A stretch of DNA of 28,330 nucleotides from a virus. Shown one piece after another: positions 9,527 through 28,292 of the stretch. Location: the IMG/VR virus record IMGVR_UViG_3300028925_003959, one strand, 5' to 3'. The position numbers and the translations under genes were made by a program. The notes under the pieces are model-generated. The model was not told the origin of the DNA, made no database searches, and was given only the letters and a program-made list of their open reading frames with translations. How positions within the stretch are numbered: the first letter of the stretch is position 1; every line of letters starts with the position of its first letter.

Positions 9527-10414
9527 TTAAAGTAATTTTTGTATTTGTTTTACTATATTAGAAGACTCCTTAGCTCCTGTTTCTGCTTCTGTTAATTTTG
9601 AAGAAAATAATTTAACTATATCTGAACTAACTCCTAATTCTTTAGCTTTTGTAACTCCTATTGCAGCTTCTTTTGCAGCTTTATTGAAATCACTAGCAGC
9701 ACTATCAGCTACACCTGCTGCATCTCTTAGTCCGTTTTTAATATTAGCAAAAGCAGTTCTAGCTTTTTCTAGTGGCTTATTTATGTCGTCATTAATACTT
9801 AAATCAACCTTCTGAACACTTAGCAACTCTTTTATTGCATTCCTTACTTCTTCGTCTGTAAATTCTTTCTTCTTGTTCATTTGTTCAAATTTATTAGTAA
9901 AATAGCCTTCTATTGAAAGACCTTTAAGTTCTCCGTTTTTTATCTTAGACCAAATTTCATCATTTGAAATAGATAACTTAACCATCCAAGTTCCCACAGG
10001 AAGCGAATAGCCATATAAAGTAGACTTATCTAATTTAGTGTCTTCTATAATCCAAGACTCAACTGTAAGTATTCCTGAAACTCTATCTTGATGTTGGTAT
10101 GTCGCCTTATGGTGATTGTTATGCTTTAAATACAATTCAGAAGCCTTCTGTACTGTTTCTTTTGAAAAGTAAACATAGTAGTCCGAATCGGTGTTTGGGT
10201 CGTGTCTAAAGATTTGCTTGTTAGGAATCAAAGCAGGAGAAATTAACATTCTCTTTTCTTCATCAACCTTTGCAAATGTTAAGTTGTTTTTCTCTTTACC
10301 AAAGAATACAAAGTCTTGCTCAATAGCAGGACTAGTTACTAAGCTAATAGCATCAATAGCTAATTCTTCAGAATCATCTGCAATTACAAGTTCTACTATT
10401 TTAGTTGCTTTCAT
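9527..10414 (-). CDS. XkdF-like putative prohead protease with a C-terminal coiled-coil module
   Basis: Segment-by-segment resemblance to B. subtilis PBSX XkdF as I recall it: ISLVTSPAIEQDFVFFGK, EKRMLISPALIPN, TVESWIIE and GTWMVKLSISNDEIWSKIKNGELKGLSIEG. Confidence 0.7.
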   Translation of the reverse strand: MKATKIVELVIADDSEELAIDAISLVTSPAIEQDFVFFGKEKNNLTFAKVDEEKRMLISPALIPNKQIFRHDPNTDSDYYVYFSKETVQKASELYLKHNNHHKATYQHQDRVSGILTVESWIIEDTKLDKSTLYGYSLPVGTWMVKLSISNDEIWSKIKNGELKGLSIEGYFTNKFEQMNKKKEFTDEEVRNAIKELLSVQKVDLSINDDINKPLEKARTAFANIKNGLRDAAGVADSAASDFNKAAKEAAIGVTKAKELGVSSDIVKLFSSKLTEAETGAKESSNIVKQIQKLL

Positions 10415-19141: not shown

Positions 19142-19909
19142 TTCTTTTTACTTTATTTTGTGAGTTCAAATCTGTTTCATAACTTAACCAAGTCAGGCAC
19201 TCTAACAAGTTGAGCTTTGTAATACTTTCTAATTTACTAATATCTTCACCGCACAACCTGTGCATTACTCCGAACCATCCCCACTTACTGGCAAAGTCTT
19301 CACTAGCTATTGCACTTTCGTTTCCTTCAGCCGAGTTATCGAAAATGATAGCAAAGTCTCGGACAATACCTTCCCTAAAGTGTAAAAAAAAACTAAAGCA
19401 CTTTGAACTTGTTCTGCCGACATCTGTTTCATTTCTTCTGCTCTGAGCCGAATATCACCATCATACGGTTCAATAATATATAGTGTATCACTTTTCTTTA
19501 TTTTGATAGGTCTATAAAGTACCGACATCAATTCAGGAAGGTTCTTATCTATTCCATTCTTTATAAACTGCTCAATGTCTGCATACTCTCCTAATGTAAT
19601 TTCTGAAAGGTCAGGATGAAAAGCGTATTCAACTTCATTGATAGTTATAATCCTTTTAAGCTTAGTGTCTTGCTTAGCTTGAAGTTCTCCTATCTTTGAC
19701 ATAATGACTGCTACGTCTGATAAAGCTAGTTCCTTAACCAACCGTTTAGGAATGTCAGATAGTGCTGCTAATGTTGCTTCAGCTTCTTCAGTCTTAGTTC
19801 CTGTTTCAAAGTCAATAATTTTTAACCAAGTTTCTAATGTAACATCACTCCAATTGTTAATTAGACTGAACGATTCTACTTTACCATCTTTTTTAATTTT
19901 GACTTTCAT
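19134..19909 (-). CDS. Predicted -1 frameshift fusion product (about 258 aa): residues 1-175 of the 200-aa ORF plus 83 aa from the -1 frame
   Basis: The -1 frame is open from 19454 to the TAA at 19134..19136, with no ATG before 19265. It covers the otherwise gene-free gap 19142..19306 and translates to a normal-looking sequence: LHFREGIVRDFAIIFDNSAEGNESAIASEDFASKWGWFGVMHRLCGEDISKLESITKLNLLECLTWLSYETDLNSQNKVKRNG. Confidence 0.45.
19307..19909 (-). CDS. Zero-frame product (200 aa) of a candidate frameshift pair; tail-assembly-chaperone-like by architecture
   Basis: ATG at 19907..19909, 4 nt after the conserved 12-mer. It contains GTT TTT TTT TAC (a U9 run) 25 codons before its TAG. Confidence 0.6.
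   Translation of the reverse strand: MKVKIKKDGKVESFSLINNWSDVTLETWLKIIDFETGTKTEEAEATLAALSDIPKRLVKELALSDVAVIMSKIGELQAKQDTKLKRIITINEVEYAFHPDLSEITLGEYADIEQFIKNGIDKNLPELMSVLYRPIKIKKSDTLYIIEPYDGDIRLRAEEMKQMSAEQVQSALVFFYTLGKVLSETLLSFSITRLKETKVQ
19384..19392 (-). other. U9 slippery run (heptamer U_UUU_UUU in the zero frame)
   Basis: The plus strand has nine consecutive A at 19384..19392. The zero frame reads GTT TTT TTT TAC. Confidence 0.5.
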
Positions 19910-19913
19910 ACAC

Positions 19914-19925
19914 TATATAATAGAA
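19914..19925 (-). promoter_or_regulatory. Conserved late motif copy 2: TTCTATTATATA, 4 nt upstream of ATG 19909
   Basis: Exact 12-mer in the 45-nt gap after TerL. Confidence 0.55.
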
Positions 19926-19954
19926 ATAAGTTGTTTTTAGTTTAACGATTTTTT

Positions 19955-21265
19955 TTACTGCACATAATACCTTCCCACGTTCTTATCTATCTCATAATAC
20001 ATTCGCATTGCTAAAGCGTCAGCATAATCAGGAGAACGCCCTAGAATAGCCTTAACAGTATCTTTAGGAATTATCTGTAGTTTGTTATCTTTATCTGCAT
20101 CTTTCATTCTTACTTGTTCTAGTTCTTCTGTTATTGTATTCTTAGTATTAACGTCTGAACAACTTATACCAATTTGTCCTTTGTTTATTTCATCTGCTAA
20201 CTTGTAATAACATTGAGTCTTTAAGTTCTGATAGTTCTCTCCTTTTAAAGCTCTAGCATTATTTGTAAATCCTTGACAACGTAAGTAATCTTTAACTCCA
20301 CCACCAACTCCATCCTCATCTACTATGATATTCCTTAAAGCTACTTGATTTTCTTGTTGTAGTTTCTTAATCTCGTCCACAACATCATTTACAGCCGATT
20401 TAAGGATAGTTCTCACATAAGTAAGGTGTAAGCCTTCCCATAACATTATAACTGTCTTATCGCTTCCAAATCGTGCAACATCACAACTGATATACTTTTC
20501 TCCTGTTATTCCTTTTTGACTAAACATTCCCATAATAGAATTGTAATCTATAAGACTGTCATCAGTTGCATCATATTCCCAATTACCGAATAGAAGTCTT
20601 TGCTTACTTAGTTCATCTAATTGAGATAGCTGAGTTTCATAGTGCTTAGAGATGTAGTTGTTATCCACCACTAAAGACTGAATAAACTTTCTGTAAGGTT
20701 TTATTGTATTGTCTTGTGCAGGTCTGTAATACTCTGAATAAACCCAATTCTTAGCAGGGTTGCAAGTCATAAGCATCTTAGGTATTAAGCCGTTCTCATC
20801 TAACTTATATCTTAGTCTTGATGCTACTACGTTCTTAGCCTTTTCAGTAATCTGATTAGCCTCATCTATGAAAGCTCCTGTTATTTCTAGTGAACCTAGA
20901 CTATCAAAGTTTCTGTCTGAAGGGTATAAGAACAAGTCCTTTAGTATTATCTCAGAACCATTGTAAAAGGTTATCACATTACTTGAACCATTAAACGTGT
21001 AGTCTTTAATAGCTTTTAAGTTCCACTCGGTGCATACTTCAAAGAATGTATTTAGTGTAGTCTTTTTTAAAGCATCTAACTTTGACCTTCCCATTAAGTA
21101 CCTAGTCTTTGGATATGTTAGGCACATAGTAATTAAGTAGCTACAACCTACCCAAGACTTACCTCCTCCTGCTGCTCCTCCAAATAAAACCTCTTTAGTC
21201 TTATTGTCTAATAGATACTTTAAGCACTCTTTTTGTTTAGGTGTAAATTCAGGATTAATCTCCAA
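19955..21265 (-). CDS. terL: Terminase large subunit
   Basis: Walker A FGGAAGGGKSW and Walker B-like AFIDEANQ, with a C-terminal nuclease-type region (VDEDGVGGG). 436 aa. It overlaps the upstream TerS gene by 11 nt. Confidence 0.9.
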   Translation of the reverse strand: MEINPEFTPKQKECLKYLLDNKTKEVLFGGAAGGGKSWVGCSYLITMCLTYPKTRYLMGRSKLDALKKTTLNTFFEVCTEWNLKAIKDYTFNGSSNVITFYNGSEIILKDLFLYPSDRNFDSLGSLEITGAFIDEANQITEKAKNVVASRLRYKLDENGLIPKMLMTCNPAKNWVYSEYYRPAQDNTIKPYRKFIQSLVVDNNYISKHYETQLSQLDELSKQRLLFGNWEYDATDDSLIDYNSIMGMFSQKGITGEKYISCDVARFGSDKTVIMLWEGLHLTYVRTILKSAVNDVVDEIKKLQQENQVALRNIIVDEDGVGGGVKDYLRCQGFTNNARALKGENYQNLKTQCYYKLADEINKGQIGISCSDVNTKNTITEELEQVRMKDADKDNKLQIIPKDTVKAILGRSPDYADALAMRMYYEIDKNVGRYYVQ

Positions 21266-21623: not shown

Positions 21624-22007
21624 TTATTCATATTCATTTGGCAGCATTAGTCTGATACCTAGTTCAGTCATTGCCCATATTCTTATTTGGTCTGCATATA
21701 TCTCAAAGGCTTTGCTATCCATTCTTGCTGTACTCTTAACTACTTGTACTCCTATTACCTTATCATTTCGTTCTATGCTTTCCCATTGAGTGGAGAACTT
21801 TAATTTTAATAGATCGTGAATTTCGTCAGGGTAGTAGCCTAGTTCGTTAGATAAGACTTGTACGATACAACTCCAATAATAGTTATTCTGCATATTGCTT
21901 CTTGTATTTCTTTGTTTCTTTACCTCTACTAAGTAGTCGTTCCCTAATTCCTTTAAGTAGTGTATTAGGTTGTGCTTGTCCTTATCGCATTTGATTACGA
22001 ACTTCAC
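21624..22007 (-). CDS. ninB: NinB/Orf-family recombination mediator
   Basis: KKQRNTRSNMQNNYYWSCIVQVL...VKSTARMDSKAFEIYADQIRIW parallels lambda NinB ERNRSLDQNRKLWACLGDV...GQSTSRMRVGEFAELLELIQAF. The start codon is GTG (22005..22007), overlapping the upstream TAG. Confidence 0.7.
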   Translation of the reverse strand: MKFVIKCDKDKHNLIHYLKELGNDYLVEVKKQRNTRSNMQNNYYWSCIVQVLSNELGYYPDEIHDLLKLKFSTQWESIERNDKVIGVQVVKSTARMDSKAFEIYADQIRIWAMTELGIRLMLPNEYE

Positions 22008-22237
22008 TATTCCTTTAATCTTTCTATTTCAAATAACAAATGATTCACTCCTTTTTGAATATCATCTATATGCTTATCAATATTAGACATACCTTCCTCT
22101 GTTTTCTTACCACAACGCAAAAGATATGAACAGGCAGTACCGACATTATATGATAAATCAAAGTCCTCAATGACCTTACGTGCTTCTATCTTGTATCTTC
22201 TTCCTATATAGTAACTTGGTATTCTATTGTTTTTCAT
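22007..22237 (-). CDS. DUF3310-like small phage protein
   Basis: The pattern PSYY...E..VIEDF.L....G.A..YL.R.G.K......D..K...HL matches my recollection of the DUF3310 consensus. Confidence 0.5.
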   Translation of the reverse strand: MKNNRIPSYYIGRRYKIEARKVIEDFDLSYNVGTACSYLLRCGKKTEEGMSNIDKHIDDIQKGVNHLLFEIERLKE

Positions 22238-22430
22238 CTTTCTTTTGTATTTCGCTATAAGTTCTGTTTCTATCGTGTGCTAGTCCTCCTGTCCTAGTTT
22301 CTACTTTATCCATTTTCCAAAGTAGCTTTTCTTTTGTTCTATTCTTTATTCTTGTTTCTATTATGCTCATAATAATAACTACGAAAAAGAAGATTGCTGT
22401 AAAGATGCCTAGTACGGTAAATATAATCAT
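22224..22430 (-). CDS. Small membrane protein (N-terminal TM)
   Basis: The N-terminus IIFTVLGIFTAIFFFVVIIMSII is followed by a basic tail. Confidence 0.55.
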   Translation of the reverse strand: MIIFTVLGIFTAIFFFVVIIMSIIETRIKNRTKEKLLWKMDKVETRTGGLAHDRNRTYSEIQKKDEKQ

Positions 22431-22447
22431 TGTTTTATTGTTTTAGT

Positions 22448-22618
22448 TTATTCTGTTAATAGTCTTAGTAGTTGGCTGCTCGTATATATTCTTTCCTTTC
22501 CTGAATAATTATCAAAGATACAAGTAAAGTTATCTTCTTCCCATATCCATAAAGAATTGACATTGTTCTTTATATGTCCTTTCAACACCCACTTGATTGT
22601 TTTGTATGTTCTTTCCAT
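22448..22618 (-). CDS. Hypothetical small protein (56 aa from MERTYKTIKW...)
   Basis: The track ORF 22448..22654 starts at a TTG inside the GC-rich hairpin, so I trim it to the first ATG (22616..22618). Confidence 0.45.
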   Translation of the reverse strand: MERTYKTIKWVLKGHIKNNVNSLWIWEEDNFTCIFDNYSGKERIYTSSQLLRLLTE

Positions 22619-22640
22619 ATCTATTGTTTTAGTTTGTATT

Positions 22641-22662
22641 GGGGAGGCGACCAAACCCCCCC
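22641..22662 (-). other. GC-rich stem-loop in the gap 22619..22719
   Basis: GGGGAGG (22641..22647) pairs with CCCCCCC (22656..22662): 7 positions, which on the minus-strand RNA is 6 G:C pairs plus one G:U wobble, with an 8-nt loop. It stands out in AT-rich sequence. No U tract follows on the minus strand. Confidence 0.45.
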
Positions 22663-22719
22663 TTTACTACTCAGGTCTGAAAAATTAAAGCCTTTGTAGG
22701 TCTTACCCTATATTTATTA

Positions 22720-23127
22720 TTAATTATTTCCTGAGTATTCTTTATATATCTTTTTTATTCCATCAAAGCAAGCTGCTATACAACTTCCACAATTAGTCCT
22801 TACTGAATAGTTTGCTCCGTATATTACATTGTACAATTCAATCATTTTCTTCTTTGCTATTTGGTTCTTTGCCCTTCCTGTTTGTAGGTCAGGGTACAAA
22901 GCTACAACTTCTTTTATTATTTCTTCAGGTATTTCTGTAGTTTTTTCAACCTCTGTAGTCTTTAACCAATACTTCTTTGGGCATTCCTGAGCTGAAATTC
23001 TTGACTTCACTTTCATAAAACAGGAACAAATTGTGCAATTTCCTAATAGACTTGAATAGTATACACAACCTTTGCAGATAGCTATCCTGTCTTCATATAT
23101 CTCTTTAGGTACAAAGAACTTATTCAC
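22720..23127 (-). CDS. Cys-rich (putative zinc-binding) protein
   Basis: Cys clusters CKGCVYYSSLLGNCTICSC...ECPKKYW and CGSCIAAC. No family name assigned with confidence. Confidence 0.5.
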   Translation of the reverse strand: MNKFFVPKEIYEDRIAICKGCVYYSSLLGNCTICSCFMKVKSRISAQECPKKYWLKTTEVEKTTEIPEEIIKEVVALYPDLQTGRAKNQIAKKKMIELYNVIYGANYSVRTNCGSCIAACFDGIKKIYKEYSGNN

Positions 23128-23686
23128 TTAGTTTCTTTTTTAATTGCTCCCTTACTTTGTCAATGGTTGTGAAAAGACTTCCTCGTGAAATTTTAGTTTT
23201 TGCGGCGAGTGAATCAAGAGTGTTTCCTTCATAATAATATAAAGTAAATACTTTGGAATCATACCAATTCATCTGGTCTAGAGCTGCGTCGATTCTTTCT
23301 AGGTTAACCCATTGATAGTCATTTACTATCTCATTAGGTAAGTTATAAAGGTGCTTAGCCGTAGAAGTATCCCCTGCCGTTATTTCATCATAAGTAACTG
23401 ACATAGCAAAACTGTCGATATGTTTATAATATTTTTTGTATTTATAATAGAAAGTGCTTCTCGGACTTGTCAAAGACCTTCTTAAGGCTACTGCTCCATA
23501 TCTTGTAATTCCTAAGGAACCGTCTTTCTCATAAATATTTCTAATTACATCAGGGTTTACTTGTAATAAATAAAGCATAAGTTCCTGAACCGCTTCATTA
23601 ACTTCATTTTCGTCTGATGTTAGTCCGTATGCCATAGTCCTGAACTTGTCTGATAGCTTAGCTATTTCTTCATAAATCTTTTCCAT
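23120..23686 (-). CDS. Phage-encoded sigma-70 family (ECF-like) RNA polymerase sigma factor
   Basis: Region-2-like segment EAVQELMLYLLQV...YGAVALRRSL. Clear region-4 HTH: SKVFTLYYYEGNTLDSLAAKTKISRGSLFTTIDKVREQLKKKL. 188 aa. Confidence 0.7.
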   Translation of the reverse strand: MEKIYEEIAKLSDKFRTMAYGLTSDENEVNEAVQELMLYLLQVNPDVIRNIYEKDGSLGITRYGAVALRRSLTSPRSTFYYKYKKYYKHIDSFAMSVTYDEITAGDTSTAKHLYNLPNEIVNDYQWVNLERIDAALDQMNWYDSKVFTLYYYEGNTLDSLAAKTKISRGSLFTTIDKVREQLKKKLSE

Positions 23687-24042
23687 TATTCTTTTATTAT
23701 TTCTATCCGGTCTATCTTATCTACGGTATCTTGTACCAGCTCATTAAGAACTAATCGGTATGCTCTAACTATTGCTGCATTCTTCTTTGTTTCAACTCCT
23801 GCAAAGAATCCGTTTGTTGCTACTGAAAGGTTTATAGGTATAATCATTAACCAATCCCAAAAATTTTGTTCTCTTTGCCCTTCGCCGTATGCATTTGAGT
23901 ATTCTATTATTACTTCTACAACCTCTAAGTAATTTTCGTATCGGTCTATCGTGCTTACGTCCTTTGCAAACTCTTGGCACATTATTATGAATGATTCTAC
24001 TATCGCTCGGTGTTCTTCATTCGCATAAATCGGTTCTATCAT
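23686..24042 (-). CDS. Hypothetical protein (118 aa)
   Basis: ORF coupled to the sigma gene by a TAATG overlap. No family recognised. Confidence 0.5.
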   Translation of the reverse strand: MIEPIYANEEHRAIVESFIIMCQEFAKDVSTIDRYENYLEVVEVIIEYSNAYGEGQREQNFWDWLMIIPINLSVATNGFFAGVETKKNAAIVRAYRLVLNELVQDTVDKIDRIEIIKE

Positions 24043-24063
24043 ATGCCAAAGATAACCAAAATA

Positions 24064-24474
24064 TTATTCAATCCCCTTTTCTTTTTTTAAGTTTTCAACA
24101 ATTAGCTTATAATATCTTATTTGTTCTTCATACTCTACTCTTGAAATTTTATACGTAGTCCTAGCAAAGTGTTCTAATTCTTCGGCTGTACCCTCTCCGT
24201 ACTTTTCATCTAGCCTAAGTGAGAAAAGGTACTGCTCTCCTTGAGAAAACATATTACACTTGATACACTGCACTTGACAATTTTCTTCGTCAAATCTTGT
24301 CGCCATATGTTTTCGACTTTGGAAGTGACCGTTCTGCATTCCGTCTTTATAGTGCCTGACTACTCCACAAGTTATGCACTGTATATAGCCAAATTCGTTT
24401 GCGTCTCTTAATCTTATGTAAAAACTAAACCATTTGTCTAACTCTTTTTTTAGTTTACTAATTGTTTTCTTCAT
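24064..24474 (-). CDS. ninG: NinG/Rap-family recombination endonuclease
   Basis: LDKWFSFYIRLRD...CITCG...MQNGHFQSRKHMATRFDEENCQVQCIKCNMFSQG matches the NinG pattern (YIRlRD, CxxCG, aGH, QCxxCN). Confidence 0.7.
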   Translation of the reverse strand: MKKTISKLKKELDKWFSFYIRLRDANEFGYIQCITCGVVRHYKDGMQNGHFQSRKHMATRFDEENCQVQCIKCNMFSQGEQYLFSLRLDEKYGEGTAEELEHFARTTYKISRVEYEEQIRYYKLIVENLKKEKGIE

Positions 24475-24769
24475 ATCCTAAATTTCTTTTAACTATGTTT
24501 TGCTTTGTTGTTTGTCTATCTATATATACTTTCCCCCTTAGTCCTACGTGCTTTTCTTGTAATAAAGCTCTGTATCTCCTTATAGTTTTTGCGTTAGTCA
24601 ATTTACTGGCCGCAATTAATCCCATAAACTCCATGCAATTTAGTTTGTGAGGGTCTAACCCGTTGTGTTTCATCTCATTAAACCAAAACGTGCAAATAAG
24701 TTTATTGTCACTATCTTTTAAGTGAGGGTGCTTTTCTAATAATAACTGAACTTCATCTTTAGTTTTCAT
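24458..24769 (-). CDS. Hypothetical protein (103 aa)
   Basis: ORF immediately downstream of the ThyA-like gene. No family recognised. Confidence 0.5.
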   Translation of the reverse strand: MKTKDEVQLLLEKHPHLKDSDNKLICTFWFNEMKHNGLDPHKLNCMEFMGLIAASKLTNAKTIRRYRALLQEKHVGLRGKVYIDRQTTKQNIVKRNLGYEENN

Positions 24770-24771
24770 AA

Positions 24772-25419
24772 TTATACATTTAATTCAAATTTGACTTTGT
24801 CCCCTCTTAAGAGAGAGCTAGTATTATCTATGTTATTACTATAAATATGAGCGTTACCTATAAAGAACGTGATATTTCCTAATGGTATATTTATTTTTTT
24901 ACTAATTAAGTACGCTTGATATATATCACTAGGTAGACCTAAGTTACTGTCTGCTGACCTTTGAAAAACAGTAATAAATAACTCTCCATCACTTATTTGG
25001 AATTGTATAAGGGACAAACAGGGTAATTGACTAGTCTTAATTCCCGTTTCTCCTATGAAAAGCATATAATTTTTTGAAGACCTTTTTTCCTTATTAATTT
25101 TATCTATAAGTGCAGGCAATTTTTTAAAGTATGTTGGGTAGGTATTAATCATTTCAGGAAAGCAATAATCCCACCACGCGATACCCACCTCATTATATTT
25201 AGCTACAGATGTTATACCATTACAATACAATTCAAGTTCAGCAGCGAGCTTAGTTTTAGCTATAGGATGCTCTTCTAATATCCTTAGCACTTCTGTTTTG
25301 TCTAAATTTAGTGTCTCATTAATTAGATAGGTTATATTTCCTTTCTTATTTTTCTGTTTTTTTCCAACTATTAGAATTTTTTCTAATAATTCATAATACT
25401 TATTCAATTTATTTTTCAT
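24772..25419 (-). CDS. Divergent, short ThyA-family pyrimidine C5-(hydroxy)methylase with dCMP-type specificity residue
   Basis: An ungapped match to E. coli ThyA runs from the catalytic Cys onward. Ours: PCLSLIQFQISDGELFITVFQRSADSNLGLPSD. E. coli: [33 protein letters not shown]. Also GNAHIYSNN vs GDTHLYSNH. Cys134 equals Cys146. The residue 31 positions later is Asp165 (GAT, 24925..24927) where thymidylate synthases have Asn177. Confidence 0.75.
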   Translation of the reverse strand: MKNKLNKYYELLEKILIVGKKQKNKKGNITYLINETLNLDKTEVLRILEEHPIAKTKLAAELELYCNGITSVAKYNEVGIAWWDYCFPEMINTYPTYFKKLPALIDKINKEKRSSKNYMLFIGETGIKTSQLPCLSLIQFQISDGELFITVFQRSADSNLGLPSDIYQAYLISKKINIPLGNITFFIGNAHIYSNNIDNTSSLLRGDKVKFELNV

Positions 25420-25547
25420 ATCTTTTCTCCTTTAGGTTGTCTTACAACAGGAACGTATCTGTATACTTCCGGTTGCTTAAATCCAAACATCATTTTGAAA
25501 CTTCCTGTCTTTTCAGGGTTGTACAATTTTCCTTTTTCTGTTTTCAT
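25416..25547 (-). CDS. Small ORF absent from the ORF track (43 aa, MKTEKGKLYNPEKTGSFKMMFGFKQPEVYRYVPVVRQPKGEKI)
   Basis: My own translation. The ATG (25545..25547) lies 4 nt after the DnaC-like stop. Its TGA (25416..25418) overlaps the ThyA-like ATG (25417..25419) as ATGA. It fills the 132-nt gap exactly. Confidence 0.4.
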   Translation of the reverse strand: MKTEKGKLYNPEKTGSFKMMFGFKQPEVYRYVPVVRQPKGEKI

Positions 25548-25551
25548 ATTT

Positions 25552-26127
25552 TTATTTTCTAAAGCTTTCGCCTTTAATTATTATTACTTTACATTTTCTT
25601 AATCTGTCTAATGTCCTATCGTCATATCTTTTCTTTAGTGCTTCAGGGGATAAGTTAGTCGTTATTAATAAAGTCTTTGAACTATCTTCAGCATAAGAAA
25701 TTGCGTCTGCTACAGCGTCTATTTTTGTACCGTAATCATTCTTAATGCTTTCAGTTCCTAAGTCATCAATGATAATAAAAGTAGTTATGCTTTTTTCAAC
25801 CACTCCTAAGTCTTTTGCTGATACACTTTTTAGACTCTTGTTTGTCTTGGTTCTAAAAATTGCAGGAATAACATAATTTAGAATAGTAGACTTCCCTAAT
25901 CCACATTCACCCATTAACATCAGACCCCTTCCTTTCGTGTCTTCTAACCAATCAATTATTTCGTCATAAGCAGGAAGGTGCTTATAAGTGTCTATCGTCC
26001 TGTCATAGTGCTTAAAAGCCTTAATAAACATATCTTTCAATTCCTCTTTAGTTCCTAACTTGAACCTGTTGTAAACTTTAGGTTTAAGAAATTCAGCTAT
26101 TTTAAATGTATCTTCTATTGTTCTCAT
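25552..26127 (-). CDS. DnaC/IstB-like AAA+ ATPase (helicase loader)
   Basis: Walker A GECGLGKST and Walker B FIIIDDLG, with TLLITTN (sensor-like). 191 aa, downstream of the initiator-like gene. Confidence 0.7.
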   Translation of the reverse strand: MRTIEDTFKIAEFLKPKVYNRFKLGTKEELKDMFIKAFKHYDRTIDTYKHLPAYDEIIDWLEDTKGRGLMLMGECGLGKSTILNYVIPAIFRTKTNKSLKSVSAKDLGVVEKSITTFIIIDDLGTESIKNDYGTKIDAVADAISYAEDSSKTLLITTNLSPEALKKRYDDRTLDRLRKCKVIIIKGESFRK

Positions 26128-26132
26128 AATTT

Positions 26133-26849
26133 TTAAAATGTTCCATCACCATAGTCTTGACCTTTTTCGTGTCTATGTGATGTAGTGTTATTATTAGGTT
26201 TATCCCACTTCTTTTGATTTGCAGCCCAATTCTTTAATCTTAAAGAAGTACTCCAAGTTTTGTTTAATTCAAATTTCATTTTTGTATTTGACTTATTTGG
26301 TTCTGTCCAATAATCTATAAAGCCGTTTAATATACTTTCATTATAATCAAAAGTTAAAACCTCAAAAACAAATTCATTTTTTCTATTTGATATATTAGTT
26401 ATTATTATTTCTTTATTCTTATTGTTATTCTTATTAATAGTTTGCTCTTTTTTAACAGCAAGTTGTTCACTTTCTTCACAACTAGTTTGCTCTTTTTTAA
26501 TAACTTGCTTTACACTTTCTTCACAACTAGTATTGAAGTAGCTTAAAAGCTTGATTTCAATAATTTTAAAGTGCTGCTTTGCTGGAATGCCTACTAATTG
26601 AGTTTCAATTATACCTGAATCTTTAAGATTCTTAATTGCTTTTCTTTGTTGATGTGAAGTTAATGAAGTATCTCTTTCTATATTCTTAGCTGTATTAAAA
26701 AACCAGCCATCGGTCATGCCATTAGCTATAAAGTATTCTTCTTTACTTATTAGGTCAGCAAGTAGTACAGCCTCTTTTAATCCTACTTGCCTAGCTAATT
26801 CTTTGTTTAATACTATAAATGCTGTACTACTTAATAGATGTTTCATCAT
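26133..26849 (-). CDS. Replication initiator / replisome-organiser-like winged-helix protein with an internal 15-aa tandem repeat
   Basis: The N-terminal LARQVGLKEAVLLADLISKEEYF...DGWFFNTAKNIERDTSLTSHQQRKAIKNLKDSGIIE is typical of DnaD/phage-O-like N-terminal domains. Mid-protein repeat: SCEESVKQVIKKEQT / SCEESEQLAVKKEQT. Confidence 0.5.
   Translation of the reverse strand: MMKHLLSSTAFIVLNKELARQVGLKEAVLLADLISKEEYFIANGMTDGWFFNTAKNIERDTSLTSHQQRKAIKNLKDSGIIETQLVGIPAKQHFKIIEIKLLSYFNTSCEESVKQVIKKEQTSCEESEQLAVKKEQTINKNNNKNKEIIITNISNRKNEFVFEVLTFDYNESILNGFIDYWTEPNKSNTKMKFELNKTWSTSLRLKNWAANQKKWDKPNNNTTSHRHEKGQDYGDGTF
26438..26527. repeat. Two tandem 45-bp units (about 38/45 identical) inside the initiator gene, next to a duplicated 11-mer TTATTCTTATT (26413..26423, 26425..26435)
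   Basis: Unit 1 (26438..26482): tagtttgctcttttttaacagcaagttgttcactttcttcacaac. Unit 2 (26483..26527): tagtttgctcttttttaataacttgctttacactttcttcacaac. A third unit begins with tag at 26528..26530. Confidence 0.85.
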
Positions 26850-27355
26850 ATGACTTTGTATTGATAATGGTAATCTTTGAGTGCAAATTTAATAATTTCA
26901 ATAACATTATAGAAATTTTGGTGACTTAATTGTAAATTAACATAAAAGTTTCCTGATCTTAATACTAGTTCTGTATTGTAAGTAAGACTTGAATTAATTT
27001 TATACTTATCTAGGAATTTCTTAAAAGAAGCTTGAGTTGTAAAGTATTTCTTTTTCTTCTTTTGATTACAATAAGCTATGTAAACATTTATAAAAGTTTC
27101 CCTGTACTTTGGAAATGAAATATAATTAGACTGATGAAATTTCTCATAATGATATATATTACTCCTATCTCTTTTTAACTCCTTTGCTATTACTGTTTGA
27201 TGTATATTTTCCTCTAGTCTTGCAATCATACTTATAACAGCTCTAGGTATTTGGTACTTCTGTTCCCTAGACTTTTTAGATAGTGAGCCTTTAGGCAACC
27301 CTACTAACTCTGTAGTAAGGTTGCAAAGGTTTTTAAAGTTTTCTTTATCAGTCAT
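26846..27355 (-). CDS. DnaA C-terminal-domain-like HTH protein
   Basis: IPRAVISMIARLEENIHQTVIAKELKRDRSNIYHYEKF resembles DnaA domain IV (R..amyl.r.....s...Ig......dhstv.ha). It has a 4-nt ATGA-type overlap with the downstream gene. Confidence 0.4.
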   Translation of the reverse strand: MTDKENFKNLCNLTTELVGLPKGSLSKKSREQKYQIPRAVISMIARLEENIHQTVIAKELKRDRSNIYHYEKFHQSNYISFPKYRETFINVYIAYCNQKKKKKYFTTQASFKKFLDKYKINSSLTYNTELVLRSGNFYVNLQLSHQNFYNVIEIIKFALKDYHYQYKVI

Positions 27356-27356
27356 C

Positions 27357-27701
27357 TTAGAAAGGTAAATCGTCAGGAGTAGTACCTGGAAAATGTACGT
27401 CTAATCCTTCAGGCATAGCTGTTTCAGGAGTCTTTTTGACGAACCAATATCCGTCTATATTGTGGAAGTATTTTCCGTTGTATTCTCTTGAAGATACGTT
27501 GCACTTGATTAAAACTTCATCACCTACTGAAAGTTTATTCAAGTCTTTAATTTTCTCATCTCCGAAAGCTGTTACTGCTATTTCAGGATTATATTCTGCA
27601 CCTGTGTCTACAACTACAGTTTGCTTTTTCCAAACCTTTTCAGACTTTGAGATTCCTGATTCTACATCTAACTTCTTTACTAATGTTCCTTTTACTTCCA
27701 T
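27357..27701 (-). CDS. ssb: DUF3127-type OB-fold single-stranded DNA-binding protein with SSB-like acidic tail
   Basis: MEVKGTLVKKLDVESGISKSEKVWKKQTVVVDT...FGDEKI...VGDEVLIKCNVSSREYNGKYF follows the DUF3127 pattern. The C-terminus ends DDLPF, like the bacterial SSB tail DDDIPF. Confidence 0.7.
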   Translation of the reverse strand: MEVKGTLVKKLDVESGISKSEKVWKKQTVVVDTGAEYNPEIAVTAFGDEKIKDLNKLSVGDEVLIKCNVSSREYNGKYFHNIDGYWFVKKTPETAMPEGLDVHFPGTTPDDLPF

Positions 27702-27743
27702 TTTTATTGTGCCTGTTTTTGCAGGACTTTATTAATTAAATTA

Positions 27744-28292
27744 TTATCCTTGAATCATTATACCTAATGTTTCGGATTGTTTTTTACTCATTTTATAGTT
27801 GCTCATCTTTCTTGATACAGCTTCACCTTTTCCTGTATTGATTGCTTCTAACATTGCATTGTAAATATCAGTAGTCATTTGAGGTTTTGAAGCAGGTTCG
27901 TTTACTCTATTACTATCAGCATCTTTAGTGTCATCTAATAAGAATAAATTTCCGAGAGCATATTTCTTTGCATAGCTGCTAGAACTTCCGAAAGATTGTG
28001 CTATATCCATTCCTTTTCTTTCAGGGTTTATTCCTGCTTGAGCTTCTACAAAGATAGTTTTTTCTCCATCTGAAATAGATACTTTAGAGTTTAAAACTAA
28101 GTAGCCTGCAATCTCTTGAGTTGTTTCTGTTATCGTTAAGTAACAACCATACTTATTTAAAAGTGGTTTAACGGCTTCTAAGATGTCTTCAGCACTTCTG
28201 TACTTATACTTACCAAAACTATTGAATTGGTTCTTAGGTGCTTTTAATTCGCTTTGTATAGCTATTAAATAGTCTGTCTTTTCTGTTTTCAT
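27744..28292 (-). CDS. erf: ERF-family single-strand annealing recombinase
   Basis: NSFGKYKYRSAEDILEAVKPLL and GSSSSYAKKYALGNLFLLDD match ERF hallmarks (Y.YA.L..I...v.p; GSa.TYArRYaL). The ATG at 28290..28292 lies inside the terminal repeat. Confidence 0.8.
   Translation of the reverse strand: MKTEKTDYLIAIQSELKAPKNQFNSFGKYKYRSAEDILEAVKPLLNKYGCYLTITETTQEIAGYLVLNSKVSISDGEKTIFVEAQAGINPERKGMDIAQSFGSSSSYAKKYALGNLFLLDDTKDADSNRVNEPASKPQMTTDIYNAMLEAINTGKGEAVSRKMSNYKMSKKQSETLGIMIQG

Follow-up and report, generated by a model that had tools for sequence, protein, structure and literature searches.

The viral DNA analysed here, IMG/VR record IMGVR_UViG_3300028925_003959 (28,330 nt; the whole of this stretch is called the window below), carries on its minus strand, at 24772..25419, a gene for a 215-aa protein related to thymidylate synthase (ThyA). 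It is well supported that this protein is a cytosine-directed ThyA homologue and not a thymidylate synthase. Judged from its sequence, there is about an even chance that it is a folate-dependent methylase of deoxycytidine monophosphate (dCMP), which would form 5-methyl-dCMP and represent a new, compact subclade. The substrate dCMP, the methyl product and the steps downstream of it are what we infer from the residues described below. A preliminary description of the same DNA had proposed dCMP-directed C5 methylation or hydroxymethylation. The cytosine direction of that proposal held, with an Asp that is family-wide and a link to published mutagenesis and metavirome data, but the signature of a T4-type hydroxymethylase was absent.

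The gene is an uninterrupted open reading frame (ORF), and its length, its translation and its assignment to the ThyA family were as first described. The protein matched the Pfam family PF00303 (Thymidylat_synt) with an E-value of 9.3e-20 and a score of 71.3 bits (cut-off of 24.3) and PHROG 160 'thymidylate synthase' with an E-value of 3e-27, and the family profile aligned to E. coli ThyA in hhalign with a probability of 97.6%. The AlphaFold2 (AF2) model, a monomer built on 39 homologues (alignment A1), agreed with these matches; it had a pLDDT of 92.3 and a pTM of 0.90, and Foldseek aligned it to dozens of ThyA crystal structures with a TM-score of ~0.8 and an E-value of ~5e-17. ThyA is an obligate homodimer, in which the residues 126' and 127' are donated to the site of the partner subunit. 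The best-scoring solved structures were those of canonical ThyA. All of the NCBIfam ThyA equivalog cut-offs (108-576 bits) were failed, the best score being 60.2 bits. Long proteins with Asp at position 177 outscored canonical ThyA against the window protein (83-97 vs ~59-65 bits). We also considered the short archaeal thymidylate synthase (TIGR03283) as a particular relative but discarded it, as the score of 50 bits was no better than that of other ThyA models and far below the cut-off of 174.55.

The equivalence of Asp165 to Asn177 of E. coli ThyA, on which the first proposal was built, was borne out independently by four alignments. These were HMMER against the ThyA chains in the PDB, MAFFT with the reference enzymes, hhalign, and the helix register of the model, in which the helix starting at G161 (G173 in E. 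coli ThyA) puts Asp165 at the Asn177 position. The residue, encoded by the codon GAT read from the DNA at 24925..24927 (minus strand), is the pyrimidine-specificity residue of the fold and lies within the conserved block QRSxDxxLGLPx(D/N). Asp is present at position 177 in 120/120 of the closest homologues (119 by automated count, and P0078, in which the motif reads LGLVSD), and in nearly all of the full-length relatives that outscored canonical ThyA in an HMMER search of 1.84 billion representatives. The alignment to E. coli ThyA, described as gap-free from the catalytic Cys onward, is so from Cys134 to about residue 170, but a 4-residue deletion follows.

The catalytic set of ThyA (Cys146, Glu58, Tyr94, Arg166, Asp169, His207 and Tyr209) was aligned throughout and is invariant in the family. 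The nucleophile Cys146 corresponds to Cys134 (codon TGT, 25018..25020, minus strand, from the DNA and the alignments), Glu58 to Glu61, Arg166-Ser167 to Arg154-Ser155, the folate-type Asp169 to Asp157 (24949..24951, minus strand, from the alignments), and His207 and Tyr209 to His191 and Tyr193. Trp80 is conserved as Trp83. Tyr94 corresponds to Tyr94 or Tyr97, depending on the aligner; neither varies in alignment A1 (39 sequences), and a Thr stands before each of them (N-T-Y-P-T-Y). The changed residues are Arg21 (Lys25), Trp83 (Cys86), Arg126-Arg127 (Lys116-Asn117), Leu143 (Gln131), His147 (Leu135) and Asp205 (Asn189). Gln131, three residues before the catalytic Cys (Cys-3), is encoded by CAA at 25027..25029 (minus strand), as read from the DNA and placed by the MAFFT alignments. 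The stretch W83-D84-Y85-C86 stands where E. coli has W80-D81-E82-W83. The further substitutions noted at the outset, namely the missing RR pair, WWDY and GNAH, were thus correctly listed (K116-N117, W83-D84-Y85-C86 and N189). The Asp169 equivalent and the Gln at Cys-3 were likewise present in 120/120 of the closest homologues. The view that this is not an ordinary thymidylate synthase was upheld by Asp177, Leu147, the lack of an Arg126/Arg127 pair and the scores below all NCBIfam ThyA cut-offs.

Published residue rules were used to read the substrate and the product. At position 177, Asn selects deoxyuridine monophosphate (dUMP) and Asp selects dCMP (PMC8670742; PMC13326640), and the N177D or N229D mutation turns ThyA into a dCMP methylase (PMC8670742). 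In metavirome contigs with modified cytosine, the two strongest positional associations are those of Asp at 177 and of a residue other than His at 147 (PMC8670742). The window protein has both of these cytosine-associated states, D165 at 177 and L135 at 147. Position 143, at Cys-3, is Leu in methyl-forming ThyA and Asp or Glu in hydroxymethylases (PMC13326640; PMC6400193); the carboxylate of the hydroxymethylase serves in water activation, and the D145N mutant of T4 dCMP hydroxymethylase (dCH) is inactive (PMC6400193). Gln131 matches neither of the published states. In the MAFFT alignment, Asn occupies Cys-3 in the XP12 enzyme, which has been found experimentally to form 5-methyl-dCMP, and in its homologue from PaMx74, so an amide at this position is compatible with methyl transfer.

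Two further members of the fold were considered and rejected. Asn at position 169 marks the flavin-dependent 5-hydroxy-dCMP synthases (PMC13326640); the window protein keeps Asp169 as Asp157, and the diagnostic Asn was missing in 120/120 of the closest homologues. Ser167 is the main deoxyribose determinant and is replaced by Ala in MilA, and the auxiliary position 126 is Lys in MilA, which prefers cytidine monophosphate (CMP) (PMC5175136). The window protein shows the deoxyribose state at 167 (Ser155) and the MilA state at 126 (Lys116). A MilA-like CMP enzyme was discarded on the Ser at 167 and the lack of Asp at Cys-3, only the auxiliary Lys116 being a match.

The protein is about 50 residues shorter than ThyA, as had been stated, but it is not truncated at the C-terminus. 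In global MAFFT alignments that included the long Asp177 relatives, the C-terminal VKFELNV (residues 209-215; 24775..24795, minus strand), which is followed by the stop codon TAA at 24772..24774, aligned with the tail IKAPVAI of E. coli ThyA. The ends of the long relatives share the tail motif K[FY]x[LM]NV, in the forms IKYEMNV, IAYPLNV, YNFTLNV(GN) and YLYKLNY. Of the 120 closest homologues, 118 have the F of the tail, 117 the L, 119 the N and 117 the V, as against a mean column identity of 78%, and the tail is among the most conserved segments of the family. The ~50 absent residues comprise two internal deletions, at E. coli residues ~97-110 and ~218-256. As the tail motif is retained at the C-terminus, the short length results from internal deletions and not from truncation. 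In ThyA, the site is sealed for hydride transfer by the C-terminal tail, which closes over the folate, and T4 dCH is without this tail (PMC6400193; PMC5175136); the retention of the tail therefore bears on the product. Together with the amide at Cys-3, it favours a methyl product.

To place the gene among its neighbours, 41 viral loci with relatives of the window protein were fetched, 975 ORFs from 43 loci were clustered, and the recurrent neighbours were annotated. The recurrent neighbours were helicases, nucleases, initiators, NinG and other replication or recombination genes, with N6/N4 DNA methyltransferases next to the gene in Bacteroides phage p00 (hankyphage) and in 6 loci. No recurrent kinase, deoxycytidine triphosphatase (dCTPase), deaminase or glycosyltransferase was identified among the annotated neighbours in the related loci. 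A phmmer search of all locus ORFs with the XP12/PaMx74 hydrolase, deaminase and dihydrofolate reductase (DHFR) and the T4 beta-glucosyltransferase yielded nothing in the short-family loci. A scan of all window ORFs found no dCTPase, deoxynucleoside monophosphate (dNMP) kinase, glycosyltransferase or polymerase, in agreement with the preliminary description. The latter had raised the flanking 43-aa and 103-aa ORFs as possible partners in the route; neither had a PHROG or Pfam match, and the 103-aa ORF was conserved in just 3 related loci, which makes them poor candidates. As there are no recurrent partner genes, the ThyA-like enzyme is typically solitary.

Palindrome counts were compared with the expectations of a 3-mer Markov model. 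In the window, the observed and expected counts were 3/58 for GATC and 2/55 for CATG (z of ~-7 for each), 7/24 for TCGA and 1/9.5 for CTGCAG, which looks like escape from the type II restriction of the host. The C-containing palindromes that are purged differ by relative (loci L008, L023, L026, L027, L029, L034, L038, L039, L040 and L042), which suggests lineage-specific restriction pressure. GATC was at 0/59 and CTAG at 0/16 in L039, L040 and L042, where CATG was not purged (~50/87). The counts were 1/43 for GATC, 7/37 for CATG, 2/22 for CCGG and 1/12 for GGCC in L008; 1/28 for GATC, 0/39 for CATG and 3/25 for CTAG in L023; 0/19, 0/23 and 4/24 for the same three sites in L026; and 19/60 for GATC, 28/44 for CATG and 0/12 for CCGG in L029. 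The hankyphage genome (L055, BK010646.1; 53% G+C) had 1 CTAG vs ~30 expected, with other palindromes near expectation. The two phages with fully 5-methylcytosine (5mC) DNA showed no purging: GATC was at 136/176, CATG at 235/273 and GGCC at 666/691 in PaMx74 (L044; 50 kb), and at 41/45, 52/57 and 149/156 in the XP12 region (L054). Given the purging in carriers of the gene and its absence from the fully 5mC phages, these carriers still appear to be under selection by type II restriction at C-containing sites, which argues against a complete, protective replacement of cytosine, with the caveats that some enzymes ignore 5mC, that the avoidance may be older than the arrival of the gene, and that hankyphage purges only CTAG.

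On the methylase reading, Cys134 would attack C6 of dCMP and not of dUMP, and Asp165 would read and protonate the N3/N4 face of the cytosine. Glu61 and Asp157 would activate and orient methylene-tetrahydrofolate, the one-carbon unit would be passed to C5, and the site would be closed by the retained tail. As there is no Cys-3 carboxylate to activate water, the exocyclic methylene would be reduced by hydride from the folate, giving 5-methyl-dCMP and dihydrofolate. As the phage is without its own dCTPase, kinase and polymerase, the 5-methyl-dCMP would join the host nucleotide pool, where it would at most be partly phosphorylated by host kinases. Incorporation by the host replisome could then lead to partial, sequence-independent 5mC in lytic replication, and not to full replacement; part of the 5-methyl-dCMP may instead be deaminated to deoxythymidine monophosphate (dTMP). 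Full replacement of cytosine in virion DNA is unlikely, given both the accessory enzymes missing in the 41 related loci and the avoidance of C-containing palindromes.

Several points weigh against the methylase reading. The homology of the tail is a probable one, drawn from global alignments by way of intermediate sequences. Some traits are hydroxymethylase-like, namely the polar residue at 143, Cys86 for Trp83 and the Thr before the catalytic Tyr. The phosphate site is depleted, Arg21 being replaced by Lys or a variable residue and Arg126 and Arg127 by Lys and Asn, respectively, and Lys at 126 is the state of the CMP-preferring MilA. DHFR was beside the gene in no short-family locus, though XP12 and PaMx74 carry one; a host DHFR would suffice. 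As for the outcome in DNA, no dCTPase, deaminase, polymerase or clear kinase lies alongside the gene, and the case for it is further weakened by how strongly the window and many of the relatives avoid C-containing palindromes.

The main rival of the methylase is a dCMP hydroxymethylase, in which water instead of hydride would add, with 5-hydroxymethyl-dCMP and tetrahydrofolate as the products and 5-hydroxymethylcytosine available for DNA. Asp177 is common to the window protein and T4 gp42, the Leu143/Trp83 pair that is tied to sealing for hydride transfer is replaced by Gln131/Cys86, the Thr preceding the catalytic Tyr may be compared with Ser94 of T4 dCH, and no DHFR is linked to the gene. 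A weak Stealth-like match (17 bits, below threshold) three genes away in three large contigs would also fit. We nevertheless consider this enzyme unlikely, because its signature needs a carboxylate at Cys-3, without which the T4 enzyme is dead (D145N), and the residue is Gln in 120/120 here, while the tail that is absent from T4 dCH is kept and highly conserved. Moreover, the family profile matched T4 gp42 in hhalign with a probability of only 13.9% over 69 columns, no solved dCH or MilA chain was among the best 60 PDB matches, and there was no clear glycosyltransferase, dCTPase or kinase alongside. The chemistry of the methylase is compatible with a second use that is not DNA modification, a dUMP-independent route to thymidylate in which dCMP would be converted to 5-methyl-dCMP and a deaminase would convert this to dTMP. 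XP12-type phages obtain part of their deoxythymidine triphosphate (dTTP) by deaminating 5-methyl-deoxycytidine nucleotides (10.1101/2024.12.05.627091), and dTTP from the dCMP pool would supply an AT-rich phage, the window being 67% A+T. The gene is also solitary, with no kit to drive the 5-methylated triphosphate into DNA, and the C-containing palindromes are still purged, as expected with ordinary cytosines. No deaminase was found near the gene in the window or the 41 related loci, however, so that a host activity would be needed. A canonical ThyA, such as Bacteroides phage B40-8 has, would suffice for this purpose, which leaves the strict conservation of the Asp unexplained, and the N6/N4 DNA methyltransferases beside the gene in phage p00 and 6 loci suggest a DNA-modification context; this route is accordingly rated as distinctly unlikely.

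The remodelled phosphate and sugar site would be the key to a further reading, in which the substrate or product would be another one: CMP, a di- or triphosphate, or an undescribed C5 adduct. Of the four arginines that bind the phosphate, three are substituted (K25, K116 and N117), position 21 is variable across the clade, Lys at 126 is as in MilA, and the recently described flavin-dependent 5-hydroxylation shows that the ThyA fold can support unexpected chemistry (PMC13326640). Arg166 is conserved, though, position 167 is Ser and not Ala, and the 3'-OH-binding His207/Tyr209 and the folate-handling Asp169/Glu58 are conserved, so we regard this as improbable. Less probable still, and in our view scarcely credible, is a divergent but ordinary thymidylate synthase that would convert dUMP to dTMP. 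The label 'thymidylate synthase' on homologues in phage p00 and in JGI records, the canonical ThyA structures among the best solved matches and the presence of the whole catalytic core would be in keeping with it. Against this stand the family-wide Asp for Asn177, the Leu for His147, the lack of Arg126/Arg127, the replacement of both Leu143 and Trp83, scores of at most 60 bits against NCBIfam cut-offs of 108-576, and the N177D mutagenesis that moves ThyA towards dCMP (PMC8670742; PMC13326640). Finally, we entertain as a rather unlikely outcome that a large family of small, mostly temperate Bacteroidota phages, the globally common gut hankyphage among them, put C5-modified cytosine into DNA at the nucleotide level by means of a lone compact enzyme and host enzymes, with no dCTPase, kinase or polymerase of their own ('kit-less' pre-replicative modification), or that the site with Gln143, Thr and Cys86 makes neither a methyl nor a T4-type hydroxymethyl product. 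If the kit-less modification were true, a transposable phage replicating inside the chromosome would also mark the DNA of its host.

The best functional analogue of the predicted methylase is the XP12/PaMx74-type enzyme (XP12, MT664984; PaMx74, NC_028809). The dCMP methylases of these phages share with the window protein the ThyA fold, Asp177, Asp169, a non-His residue at 147, an amide at Cys-3 (Asn there, Gln here) and a C-terminal segment after the core. Sequence identity to E. coli ThyA is just 22-29% for both the window protein and the XP12 enzyme (MAFFT alignment A3). The XP12 enzyme keeps Arg126/Arg127 and measures 289-298 aa with insertions, whereas the window protein has 215 aa and two internal deletions; the XP12 and PaMx74 enzymes fall in a different clade. 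The XP12/PaMx74 cassette includes a haloacid dehalogenase (HAD)/pyrophosphohydrolase, a dCMP deaminase and a DHFR, and these phages have their own DNA polymerase, none of which is present in the window or the 41 loci. Their genomes show no palindrome purging, in contrast to the window.

Three other known kinds of enzyme with this fold were compared as well. E. coli-type ThyA (TIGR03284, PRK01827) shares the fold, the catalytic residues and the C-terminal tail motif, but has Asn177, His147, Leu143, Trp83 and Arg126-Arg127, and is ~50 residues longer. T4 gp42 (PDB 1B5E family) shares Asp at 177, a small residue for Trp83, a hydroxyl residue by the catalytic Tyr and a compact size; it differs in the Asp at Cys-3, where the window protein has Gln, and in the lack of the tail, and its dCTPase, kinase and glucosyltransferase partners are missing from the window. 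The flavin-dependent 5-hydroxy-dCMP synthases RB69 gp48 and DLP3 gp80 share the ThyA fold and Asp177, but their diagnostic D169N and L143E are missing in the window protein (Asp157 and Gln131).

That Asp177 homologues of ThyA make modified dCMP was established before, so the general idea has precedents. The novelty lies in an abundant and coherent subclade of more than 1200 sequences, whose active-site signature consists of Gln143, Leu or Ile at 147, Lys126-Asn127 and a small side chain at 83. The proteins have a minimal architecture of 211-215 aa in which the cofactor-closing tail is retained, and they are encoded by a lone gene in small phages that depend on the host replisome. If active on dCMP, the enzyme would test whether cytosine modification at the nucleotide level works without the usual accessory enzymes, and how reliable the residue rule at 143 (Leu vs Asp/Glu) is for methyl vs hydroxymethyl products. 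It would also bear on whether the DNA of hankyphage, among the most widespread of human-gut phages, is modified; hankyphage can be induced in culture from Bacteroides thetaiotaomicron jmh43 (PMC12135933), which puts the prediction within reach of a direct test. Automatic labels of 'thymidylate synthase' conceal enzymes of differing specificity.

A word-indexed search identified 1257 homologues of the ThyA-like protein. The best 120 of these were at least 68% identical to it and almost all of 211 aa, many of them from Tara ocean samples. The family as a whole is mostly of 211 aa and from Bacteroidota phages, with marine, soil and gut samples represented. An exhaustive HMMER search of the 1.84 billion representatives returned 111 proteins at an E-value of at most 1e-10. 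In one group of relatives, with forms of 224-289 aa among them, position 143 is Gln, 127 is Asn, 147 is a residue other than His and 83 is small, and another group of Asp177 relatives is ThyA-like at Leu143 and Arg126-Arg127. On this shared signature, the window protein can be assigned to a separate clade marked by Gln143 and Asp177, whose compact branch is formed by the proteins of 211-215 aa. When one genome per species was scanned, copies of the family turned up in a Pedobacter chromosome and in a metagenome-assembled genome of Bacteroidales.

Among cultured phages, close relatives were found only in hankyphage and related temperate Bacteroides phages, at 57% identity, and a search for cultured phages with long Gln143/Asp177 forms found none nearer than ~31% identity. 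The hankyphage protein, annotated 'thymidylate synthase' (DAC76694.1; BK010646.1, 41030..41668), is likewise a compact Asp177/Gln143 enzyme, of 212 aa, with Gln at Cys-3, Asp177, Leu147 and the tail VRFGLNV. Its setting is different: hankyphage is a Mu-like transposable phage with a diversity-generating retroelement, and its gene is at the right end of the genome and adjoins an N6 DNA methyltransferase gene (41764..42618), whereas the window gene is part of a lambdoid replication module. Phage Mu itself has its DNA-modification gene mom in this right-end position. The literature that was searched contained nothing on this subfamily, on the hankyphage ThyA gene or on DNA modification in hankyphage.

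Bacteroides phage B40-8 (L045, NC_011222) encodes at 19768..20565 a canonical ThyA, with Asn177, His147 and Leu143, which is 56% identical to that of E. coli. In the B40-8/B124-14 group, this gene comes directly after that of a Dam-like N6-adenine methyltransferase. With the Asp177 enzyme of hankyphage, there are thus two kinds of ThyA-fold protein under one annotation in Bacteroides phages. A distant relative of the window protein (27% identity) is a 433-aa ThyA-fold protein at L043:9494-10795, of an architecture unlike that of the short family; a DHFR-like gene at L043:10792-11454 overlaps the end of this gene with its start. The DHFR-like gene was rejected as a partner of the short family, because it belongs to this outlier.

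The window gene is tightly packed with its neighbours. The stop codon of the 43-aa ORF upstream (25416..25547, minus strand) overlaps the start of the ThyA-like gene (ATGA), and the 103-aa ORF (24458..24769, minus strand) begins 2 nt past its stop codon, so that the ThyA-like gene lies within an operon; no function was assigned to either ORF. Upstream, a replication and recombination module at 25552..28292 (minus strand) encodes an Erf-like annealing protein, a single-stranded DNA-binding protein, a DnaA-like protein with a helix-turn-helix, an O-like initiator and a DnaC-like loader, as assigned by PHROG and Pfam matches. Downstream, a 'nin'-type region at 21624..24474 (minus strand) encodes, by PHROG matches, NinG/Rap, an unassigned ORF, a sigma-like regulator, a DUF6171 protein, small ORFs and NinB. 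Terminase genes and structural genes follow, and the window is a fragment of a lambdoid-type phage. It is probably a whole but incomplete phage contig, as the longest contig listed for this protein in the source collection has 28,330 bp. The minus strand holds all called genes but one small ORF, and the cumulative GC skew declines monotonically. No tRNA was found in the 28,330 nt, and none of 50,697 phage records was matched in a megablast search with 8.3 kb of the window.

Among the related loci, three large and nearly identical contigs (L039, L040 and L042), which also encode a clamp-loader-like ATPase, gave kinase-like and transferase-like matches, and the window gave kinase-like ones. In these contigs, a 182-aa P-loop protein (L039:7443-7991, also in L040 and L042) is encoded three genes upstream of the ThyA-like gene. 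It has a sub-threshold match to guanylate kinase (22.6 bits, cut-off of 25.2) and may serve larger phages as a partner with dNMP kinase activity. A 244-aa protein encoded three genes downstream of the ThyA-like gene (L039:13019-13753) matches Stealth CR2, of a sugar-phosphate transferase family, with 17 bits, well below threshold; the match is probably noise, and the protein would be of interest if the product were hydroxymethylcytosine. In the window, a 76-aa ORF at 22007..22237 (minus strand) has weak PHROG matches to 'nucleotide kinase' and 'kinase', in the C-terminal part of the profile, with E-values of 2e-6 and 4e-4. It has no Pfam match, is too short for a kinase, and is conserved in 6 related loci.

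Two other proteins of the downstream region recur together in the related loci. These are a Cys-rich 135-aa protein (22720..23127, minus strand) with a DUF6171 match just below threshold (cluster c8, in 9 loci) and a 188-aa sigma-factor-like protein (23120..23686, minus strand; cluster c2, in 14 loci), which may be a late-gene regulatory pair. Finally, a 295-aa protein encoded at 9527..10414 (minus strand) matches PHROGs of head maturation proteases and also phrog_1530 'DNA methyltransferase' with an E-value of 1e-18, the latter match being confined to the C-terminal part of the profile. A protease is the most likely identity, with the methyltransferase label derived from a fused or mislabelled family.

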